Source: Escherichia coli (GTDB lineage Bacteria > Pseudomonadota > Gammaproteobacteria > Enterobacterales > Enterobacteriaceae). From it: DNA of 64,000 nucleotides. Under the pieces are notes generated by a model that ran no database searches, was not told the origin of the DNA, and saw only the letters and a program-made list of their open reading frames with translations. This document shows positions 62,763 through 64,000 of this stretch, one piece after another (position 1 is the stretch's first letter; each line of letters starts with the position of its first letter). The stretch lies in the NCBI RefSeq assembly GCF_030384885.1, contig NZ_CP128613.1. The stretch is one strand, 5' to 3'. The translations under genes were made by a program, and so were the position numbers.

Positions 62763-63395
62763 ATGGATCCCTTGCACGCCGTTTACCTGACCGTAGGACT
62801 GTTCGTGATGACTTTTTTTAATCCGGGAGCCAATCTTTTTGTGGTGGTGCAAACCAGCCTGGCTTCCGGTCGACGCGCAGGAGTGCTGACCGGGTTGGGC
62901 GTGGCACTGGGCGATGCGTTTTATTCCGGGTTGGGTTTGTATGGTCTTGCGACACTCATTACGCAGTGTGAGGAGATTTTTTCGCTTATTAGAATCGTCG
63001 GCGGCGCTTATCTCTTATGGTTTGCGTGGTGCAGCATGCGCCGCCAGTCGACACCGCAAATAAGCACACTACAACAACCGATTAGCGCCCCCTGGTATGT
63101 CTTTTTTCGCCGTGGATTAATTACCGATCTCTCTAATCCACAGACCGTTTTATTTTTTATCAGTATTTTCTCAGTAACGTTAAATGCTGAAACACCAACT
63201 TGGGCACGTTTAATGGCTTGGGCGGGAATTGTGTTCGCATCAATTATCTGGCGAGTCTTTCTTAGTCAGGCGTTTTCTTTGCCCGCTGTGCGTCGTGCTT
63301 ATGGGCGTATGCAACGCGTTGCCAGTCGGGTTATTGGTGCAATTATTGGTGTATTCGCGCTACGCCTGATTTACGAAGGAGTAACGCAGCGGTGA
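62763..63395 (+). CDS. yahN: LysE/RhtB-family amino acid exporter
   Basis: 210 aa polytopic membrane protein; the upstream ATGs at 62725/62728 are in a different frame and run into a stop. Confidence 0.85.
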   Translation: MDPLHAVYLTVGLFVMTFFNPGANLFVVVQTSLASGRRAGVLTGLGVALGDAFYSGLGLYGLATLITQCEEIFSLIRIVGGAYLLWFAWCSMRRQSTPQISTLQQPISAPWYVFFRRGLITDLSNPQTVLFFISIFSVTLNAETPTWARLMAWAGIVFASIIWRVFLSQAFSLPAVRRAYGRMQRVASRVIGAIIGVFALRLIYEGVTQR

Positions 63396-63520
63396 GCAGA
63401 TAATTTACTCTCTACGTAATCAACCTGATTTGCCGAATCCCGCTCATCGGCGATGATACCCCCCGTAATGCGTGGTCCTTATTTCCGATAAGTTTACTTG
63501 AGTCTTTAGCTTCCCATTTC

Positions 63521-63550
63521 AGCCCACTCTCCCCTGTGTGGGCTTTTTTC
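63521..63550 (+). terminator. Rho-independent terminator downstream of yahN
   Basis: AGCCCAC-TCTCCCCTGT-GTGGGCT hairpin followed by TTTTTTC. Confidence 0.55.
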
Positions 63551-63641
63551 ATTTGTCTGCTTCAGTGAGTAGCTGGCAATGCTCCATCCACTCTGCAAGG
63601 ATGATAATAAGAGGATCTGATTCAGAAGAGTTTTGAAAAAT

Positions 63642-63722
63642 TGGACCGCCATCGAGGCCTCGAACCCCGTACCATACAACAATCCTGGTTGTCGTCTGCT
63701 CTTCCTGATGAGCTAATGGCGG
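63642..63722 (-). ncRNA. tRNA-like element with atypical anticodon region (possible tRNA pseudogene or tRNA-derived RNA)
   Basis: Minus strand: perfect 7-bp acceptor stem CCGCCAT/ATGGCGG, U8, D-arm GCTC-ATCAGGAA-GAGC, T-arm CGGGG-TTCGAGG-CCTCG, discriminator plus encoded CCA. About 5 nt too long between the D and T arms; anticodon loop lacks U33. Confidence 0.3.
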
Positions 63723-64000
63723 TTTGTGATATGAGCCTTACAGCATATTGTCTGTCAGGCTTGAGTGCGATGCGTAAGATACAGAAAAGACCCCACACAA
63801 ACATGATGGAATTATGATTTTTTTCATATGAATGTCAACCAACACATTCATAAAACACTCGCACAAGTTCACTTTTTAAGCAACATGACGCCGATCACAA
63901 CAAAATATCGGCGAAAAAGGAGGGTAAATGCCATTTGACGTGGAGATAAGCAGATGAAATGATTACCCGCTTTGCGATTCACTCTCTGATGGAATAACAA

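Follow-up and report, generated by a model that had tools for sequence, protein, structure and literature searches.

A phage-derived tRNA-like segment within the Escherichia coli gene xtpA, probably maintained for its nucleotide sequence

Identification of the locus as xtpA

The window analysed here, a stretch of 64,000 nt from E. coli, contains an 81-nt tRNA-like element on the minus strand (63642..63722), which was called by ARAGORN and whose cloverleaf is also its minimum-free-energy fold. The element lies inside an open reading frame of 60 aa plus stop on the same strand (63622..63804, from the ORF list), of which it makes up codons 28-54. Its 81 nt are 100% identical in K-12 (NC_000913.3, 345,334-345,414), where they fall within the gene xtpA (b4845, 345,252-345,434). 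The K-12 60-aa product carries the UniRef name 'Putative transcriptional regulator XtpA', and the variant of the window strain, which differs from it by the exchanges K19Q and K27Q, belongs to the same 90% cluster. Because the locus and the 60-aa product are the same as those published, the identification of the element as the tRNA-like segment of xtpA is secure. The window shares with the published K-12 locus the 81 nt, the 60-aa ORF, an ATG at the predicted transcription start and the likeness to a phage arginine tRNA; it differs by the two exchanges in XtpA and by a PGAP record that omits the gene.

The transcript of xtpA is reported to be a leaderless mRNA with a tRNA-like sequence, which encodes the 60-aa peptide XtpA, a regulator of the small RNA GcvB (Muto, Goto, Kurita, Ushida, Soma, Himeno, J Biochem 2022;171:459-465, PMID 35081614). 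A literature search for yahM, yahL or argN in combination with tRNA or small RNA returned nothing on the element. The region looked unannotated because the PGAP records of the window strain and of K-12 derivatives contain neither xtpA nor an RNA feature at the locus, and because NCBIfam holds no model for XtpA (nor for YahM). The description of the element as unannotated in the earlier note is correct for these PGAP records but fails for NC_000913.3, where it lies inside xtpA. Likewise, the statement that no tRNA gene is known at this position overlooked that the element is already known and published as the tRNA-like sequence of the leaderless xtpA mRNA, and that it is covered by an annotated coding sequence of the reference genome (NC_000913.3). 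The tRNA-like sequence of xtpA is reportedly conserved in E. coli and similar to an arginine tRNA that is found in pathogenicity islands and in phages; deletion reportedly leads to greater sensitivity to aminoglycosides. Standard pipelines miss the element, as PGAP annotates the doubtful ORF yahM but neither xtpA nor the tRNA-like sequence, and pipelines based on ARAGORN will label it as a spurious extra tRNA-Ser(GGA).

Promoter and neighbouring genes

Upstream of xtpA, a promoter scan yielded a sigma-70-type promoter on the minus strand (63811..63838), which consists of the hexamers TTGACA (63833-63838) and CATAAT (63811-63816) with a 16-nt spacer and matches the consensus at 11 of 12 positions. 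The A of the xtpA ATG (63804) sits 7 nt past the -10 hexamer, a geometry that would fit a leaderless transcript. All Escherichia lineages compared have kept the promoter block, as well as the sequence TTTTGTGAATG that precedes the -35 hexamer (63811-63860, minus). Between the ATG and the element lies a stretch of 82 nt (63723..63804, minus) that holds xtpA codons 1-27 and would represent a 5' leader if the tRNA-like body were processed like a tRNA. As to published transcription data, a Reg-Seq preprint reports a confirmed transcription start site in the yahM region that is repressed by IHF, for which no coordinates are given. Convergent overlapping transcription of yahM and yahN was found in at least 50% of RNA-seq samples, and 'yahM' was detected in a small-RNA-enriched library.

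The chromosomal neighbours of the element are yahL or yahK, and yahN. The coding sequence of the convergently oriented yahN (62763-63395, plus) is followed by a terminator hairpin, GCCCAC...GTGGGC with a run of TTTTTT (63521..63551, plus). Rfam searches at the locus gave no family match; the three weak ones correspond to this terminator hairpin and to AT-rich noise. One candidate, a match to 'Betaproteobacteria toxic sRNA' (63501-63551, plus), was rejected, as its 20 bits missed the gathering score of 50 and it aligned only to the yahN terminator hairpin. The frame equivalent to yahM (63412..63682, minus) is split into two ORFs at 63506-63682 and 63412-63552, and yahM starts with the ATG contained in the acceptor 3' strand of the element, ATGGCGG. 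This gene looks doubtful; it is marked as 'frameshifted' by PGAP in the 100% identical strain 2013C-4282, and its region is unalignable in E. albertii and Escherichia sp. E1V33. The yahM frame (b0327 in K-12) also spans the terminator hairpin of yahN. Gene content is variable on the promoter side of xtpA, with an AI-2-type ABC transporter cluster beyond yahK in the window strain and yahJ at this place in K-12; yahL is missing in E1V33 and both yahL and yahK in E. albertii.

Structure of the tRNA-like element

Read on the minus strand, the element has the sequence CCGCCAT-TA-GCTC-ATCAGGAA-GAGC-AGACGACAACCAGGATTGTTGTATGGTA-CGGGG-TTCGAGG-CCTCG-ATGGCGG-T-CCA. The acceptor stem CCGCCAT/ATGGCGG (5' strand at 63716-63722, 3' strand at 63646-63652) consists of seven perfect pairs out of seven, and its 5' strand is followed by T8. 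The D-arm (63698-63713) reads GCTC-ATCAGGAA-GAGC and contains the GG dinucleotide (G18 G19), and the T-arm (63653-63669) reads CGGGG-TTCGAGG-CCTCG, with one G.U pair and with T54-T55-C56 and A58 present. The 3' end is formed by a T as the discriminator (63645) and an encoded CCA (63642-63644). All of these parts, from the 7-bp acceptor stem, U8 and the D-arm with GG to the T-arm with TTCGA, the discriminator and the CCA, had been named in the earlier note and were found in the sequence as described.

The segment between the D- and T-arms measures 28 nt compared with 23 in class I tRNA, which agrees with the excess of about 5 nt noticed before. It contains an anticodon-like hairpin (63676-63695, minus), which in a 5-bp register pairs ACAAC with GTTGT around the loop CAGGATT (CAGGAUU), so that positions 33 and 37 are taken by A and U, respectively; the claim that this loop lacks U33 was confirmed. 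In this register, five nucleotides instead of one (position 26) separate the D-stem from the anticodon stem, and a canonical anticodon arm with a 5-bp stem, a 7-nt loop, U33 and a purine at position 37 is not present. In the minimum-free-energy fold, the anticodon position of the cloverleaf is occupied by a 7-bp stem (ACGACAA/UUGUUGU) with a 6-nt loop (CCAGGA). The folding z-score of the element is modest (-1.88).

ARAGORN reported the element as 'tRNA-Ser(gga), anticodon at position 38', at exactly 63642-63722 (-). This was its sole tRNA call within the 64-kb window, and after shuffling of the window (40 copies, 2.56 Mb) there was one call, corresponding to about 0.025 per window. The Rfam tRNA model (RF00005, gathering threshold 29 bits) gave no match to the element at E <= 10 in searches of either 1501 or 101 nt. 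No tmRNA was reported at the element by ARAGORN or Rfam, and the covariance-model searches for tRNA and tmRNA that had been proposed for the locus came back empty even on 101 nt. Its abnormal anticodon arm and the silence of the Rfam tRNA model make it well supported that the element is unable to decode, as had already been suspected from its sequence.

Relationship to phage tRNA genes

The element is most closely related to argN, an arginine tRNA gene carried by lambdoid and Stx phages and by plasmids, and to the pseudo-tRNAs derived from it that occur in the ileZ-argN-argO clusters of these phages, which substantiates the derivation from a tRNA and the phage connection proposed earlier. The element shares 84-87% identity with an 81-nt sequence that is flanked by ileZ and argO and occurs in phiP27, mEp460-type phages and plasmid pHX138. 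A blastn comparison against phage sequences yielded a match to phiP27 with 84% identity and E = 4e-19, and the identity to pHX138 was 87%; the relative on pHX138 sits on a phage-derived segment of the plasmid, and PGAP labels the 81-nt form between ileZ and argO as tRNA-OTHER. The identity to genuine argN, the 77-nt tRNA-Arg(UCG) of Stx2 phages, is 76%. Because of the homology to a phage tRNA gene (E = 4e-19), a chance origin of the cloverleaf is excluded, and the phage-tRNA ancestry of the element is secure. The homology extends from 8 nt upstream of the tRNA 5' end to the CCA, and a blastn search with the flanks against 50,697 phage records returned no match; only the tRNA body and about 8 nt upstream of it are phage-related. 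We also looked for decayed remains of ileZ and argO beside the element, which were rejected because the scores of the alignments to phiP27 were within the range of shuffled sequences (on the upstream side, 465-506 of 500-1000 shuffles reached such a score, and on the downstream side 71 of 1000).

The argN gene of Stx2/933W-type phages, which is located between Q and stx, has the same acceptor stem, discriminator and CCA as the element and near-identical D- and T-arms, and the homology to the argN-type scaffold covers the whole body. Unlike the element, argN is 77 nt long, has a canonical anticodon arm (loop CUUCGAA), reaches 53.6 bits with the Rfam tRNA model and is part of a phage tRNA cluster. 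The element, in contrast, is 81 nt long, non-decoding and chromosomal, has its own promoter and no recognisable ileZ or argO remains alongside, does not carry an Arg anticodon (UCG/UCU) in a canonical loop and is not located in a phage late region, i.e. in an ileZ-argN-argO cluster downstream of Q. The 81-nt pseudo-tRNA between ileZ and argO (phiP27, mEp460 and many prophages) is closer to the element than any other sequence and has its length and the derived stretch AGGAAGAGCAGACGAC in common with it, whereas the middle 15 nt differ (CGATAACAGGGTTGT against ACCAGGATTGTTGTA).

These prophage copies are decaying, as more than 90 of the 120 matches of the 81-nt form in IMG/VR are damaged by destroyed T-loops, acceptor mismatches or truncations; they are degenerate, whereas the chromosomal copy is invariant. 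In most of the 120 sequences the T-loop is replaced by a GCGGG-type sequence, and poly-G length variants occur as well. The acceptor/D/T scaffold of argN recurs on other mobile elements, with some copies carrying canonical Arg loops. Others carry odd loops with A33, CAUUUAA or CAUUGCC (IMG/VR contigs and Yersinia phage YeP1), or 6-nt loops (a Cedecea plasmid and the pESI-like megaplasmid of Salmonella Infantis, next to adiA), and the odd-loop copies tested (the Yersinia phage and two IMG/VR sequences) fell below the Rfam tRNA threshold. The scaffold copies with A33 have UUU or UUG at the anticodon position. Among 12 members of the family, 99.4% of the cells in the acceptor, D and T stems pair, and a compensatory exchange from U-A to C-G was found at pair 7:66.

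Conservation in the genus Escherichia

The element is present in 5168 of 5426 complete E. coli genomes, with a median of one place per genome. It is dispensable, because about 5% of the E. coli genomes lack it and because an IS1 is inserted into its T-arm in E. coli DETEC-S792, flanked by a 9-bp target duplication (CGGGGTTCG); this strain represents a natural knock-out of xtpA together with the tRNA-like sequence.

We aligned the locus from five lineages, namely the window strain, K-12, the divergent 'E. coli' SCPM-O-B-8794, Escherichia sp. E1V33 and E. albertii. The window strain and K-12 are about 91% identical over the yahN-yahL spacer. None of the 81 columns of the element is variable among the five lineages, compared with 27 of 82 columns in the adjacent stretch on the ATG side (Fisher p = 1e-9), in a comparison limited to four non-coli lineages, some of which are represented by few assemblies. 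The 100 nt downstream of the element are unalignable between species. Eight E. albertii and three further SCPM-lineage assemblies contain the identical element, and their leader and trailer are polymorphic. All 27 third-codon positions within the element are invariant among the compared lineages, and because the chromosomal copies are invariant, no covariation is measurable among them. The single substitution found in the element occurs in O157-type strains, where CCTCG is changed to CCCCG in the 3' strand of the T-stem; it is synonymous for XtpA and converts the G.U pair to G-C. The promoter and the element are kept where yahL (E1V33) or yahL and yahK (E. albertii) are missing from the neighbourhood.

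Contigs from ENA that carry the locus were located through YahN. A scan of contigs with the 27-nt 5' half of the element gave four matches, all from Escherichia apart from one E. coli-like MAG. A metagenome scan with an 18-mer of the non-coli leader (CATAATTCCGTCATGTTT) gave 17 chance matches, none of which contained the locus.

Evolution of the xtpA reading frame

The reading frame of xtpA follows a different pattern from the element that it contains. Its codon 4 is TAG in all eight E. albertii copies and in all four copies of the SCPM lineage, with the element and the promoter intact, and one of the E. albertii copies additionally has ATA in place of the ATG. In codons 1-27, 13, 8 and 6 variable columns were counted at codon positions 1, 2 and 3, respectively, so there is no third-position excess, and the pN/pS values of about 0.6-1.2 suggest that this part of the frame evolves near neutrally. 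The C-terminal tail of XtpA and the position of the stop codon differ by lineage. In E. coli, where the representative of the XtpA cluster is found on at least 1000 contigs, substitutions in XtpA variants are confined to residues 1-27 and 55-60; the sole change in residues 28-54 is a one-residue deletion on a single short Shigella contig.

Discussion

The best explanation of the locus as a whole, to which we assign a probability of roughly 0.8, is that the tRNA-like segment of xtpA is derived from a phage arginine tRNA, is under selection for its nucleotide sequence and has a function of its own at the RNA or DNA level. Because the conservation pattern is not attributable to constraint on a peptide, we infer that the target of selection across Escherichia is the tRNA-like body itself, in its nucleotide sequence, rather than the peptide. 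The tRNA architecture is intact, which makes a role at the RNA level most plausible; the folded tRNA-like RNA would then have a function of its own, and a role at the DNA level appears less probable. Such a constraint at the nucleotide level across the genus does not appear to belong to the published account of xtpA.

The main alternative is that the 60-aa XtpA is the functional product, that the tRNA shape is an inherited accident and that the conservation reflects constraint on the protein, which we regard as unlikely. It would agree with the published account of a peptide regulating GcvB (PMID 35081614), with the ORF being intact in most E. coli (as seen from a cluster representative on at least 1000 contigs) and with the lack of substitutions in residues 28-54 of the E. 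coli variants. However, protein constraint does not account for synonymous sites in the element that are as frozen as the non-synonymous ones, and a peptide could hardly be the selected product in the eight E. albertii and four SCPM-lineage copies, all of which have TAG at codon 4 and keep the element and promoter intact. The near-neutral 27 N-terminal codons (13, 8 and 6 variable columns) and the lineage-specific C-terminal tail and stop position likewise speak against it. Very improbable, in turn, is a decayed and functionless phage tRNA gene kept by chance or by low mutation input. A gene of this kind would not be expected to show 0 of 81 variable columns next to 27 of 82 (p = 1e-9), to have a conserved promoter of its own and to be kept through the turnover of neighbouring genes, and xtpA is reported to be expressed and to have a regulatory role (PMID 35081614). 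These points outweigh the descent from a lineage of phage tRNA-Arg genes with an 81-nt form that is clearly a pseudogene in prophages, as well as the non-canonical anticodon arm and the missing response of the Rfam tRNA model, which would all be typical of a relic. The proposal of the earlier note that the element might be decayed is contradicted by 81 nt that are frozen across Escherichia species between diverging flanks.

It is highly improbable that the element is an integration scar, i.e. a duplicated tRNA fragment or att site of a tRNA-inserting element like ptwF, pauD and pawZ in K-12, even though a tRNA sequence of phage ancestry in a variable region, where the presence of yahL, yahK and yahJ depends on the lineage, might suggest it. 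We take ptwF, pauD and pawZ to be prophage-end tRNA pseudogenes of K-12, that is, partial duplicates of host tRNAs at the edge of a prophage. They have in common with the element that they are tRNA-related, non-decoding and linked to phages, whereas the element is of full length, has no host parent and no flanking prophage and shows strong sequence constraint. It consists of a complete cloverleaf rather than a 3' fragment, there is no matching host tRNA gene (median one place per genome), and neither an integrase nor a prophage was found in the 12.6-kb neighbourhood; a partial host tRNA copy bounding an integrase-carrying element was not found. Moreover, the flanks show no phage homology, the variation in gene content is on the promoter side instead of the 3' side where tRNA-targeting elements insert, and 5170 records contained no split or partial duplicate copies, apart from the one IS1 insertion. 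The suggested relic of a tRNA-targeted integration is not supported, given a full-length copy without a parent host tRNA, an adjacent integrase or island, or phage-related flanks. Finally, a working tRNA, either a decoding tRNA-Ser(GGA) or another isoacceptor with an odd anticodon loop, can be regarded as extremely improbable. The ARAGORN call, the intact acceptor, D and T arms and the encoded CCA would be in line with it, as would the varied 'anticodons' of related phage genes with A33 loops. Yet the element has A33, U37 and a spacer of five nucleotides where a tRNA has one between D-stem and anticodon stem, prefers a fold with a 6-nt loop, gives no Rfam tRNA match at E <= 10 compared with 53.6 bits for genuine argN, and lies inside an ORF. 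Seryl-tRNA synthetase needs the long variable arm of tRNA-Ser, which the element lacks.

Of the interpretation put forward in the earlier note, the tRNA-derived, non-decoding and phage-linked nature of the element was upheld, whereas the decayed relic and the integration relic were not. Among the readings offered there, the comparative data suggest that a 'tRNA-derived regulatory RNA' comes closest. In a more specific version of the favoured explanation, which we put forward tentatively and at slightly less than even odds, selection maintains a tRNA-like RNA that was domesticated from a phage arginine tRNA, does not decode, has a promoter of its own and is kept unchanged in every base throughout Escherichia, and XtpA is either a young overlay in E. 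coli and its close relatives or dispensable for the ancestral role. Transcription from the sigma-70 promoter would start at or beside the ATG and give a leaderless transcript that runs through the 81-nt cloverleaf ending in CCA. In the version that we favour, the untranslated fraction of the transcript would fold into an L-shaped tRNA mimic, which might be recognised by tRNA-handling proteins such as RNase P, 3' trimming enzymes and modification enzymes. The mimic could then either be set free as a stable RNA or act within the transcript as a module that stabilises or regulates it, and the translation of XtpA would be layered on top of this in E. coli proper.

There are known systems with either part of this arrangement. 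Genes for tRNAs are co-transcribed with mRNAs, for example in thrU-tyrU-glyT-thrT-tufB, and the element has in common with this type that a tRNA-shaped module and a coding sequence are on one transcript, but its module is inside the ORF instead of beside it. Non-decoding tRNA-like RNAs are represented by the tRNA-like domain of tmRNA and by 'tRNA-Other' of Bacillus cereus, which share with the element the mimicry of the acceptor and T-arm without decoding. In terms of sequence, ARAGORN and Rfam indicated no relation between the element and tmRNA, and the combination of a tRNA-like domain with a tag frame was not found.

If the more specific version, with selection on a tRNA-like RNA, is true, the xtpA transcript would be a dual-function RNA whose tRNA-mimic half partners with some tRNA-binding protein. 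The recurrence of the scaffold with remodelled anticodon loops on the S. Infantis megaplasmid, the Cedecea plasmid and YeP1 would then point to a wider class of tRNA mimics on mobile elements. The frozen RNA, the neutral N-terminus of the peptide and the broken ORF of E. albertii suggest that the published account, centred on the peptide, leaves out part of the picture, namely a separate role of the tRNA-like fold. A glycine identity of the element was also considered, as GcvB is part of the glycine regulon. The element does have U73, C2:G71 and G3:C70, but it shares its acceptor stem with genuine argN and lacks G1:C72; the candidate was therefore rejected as an assignment and kept as a lead.
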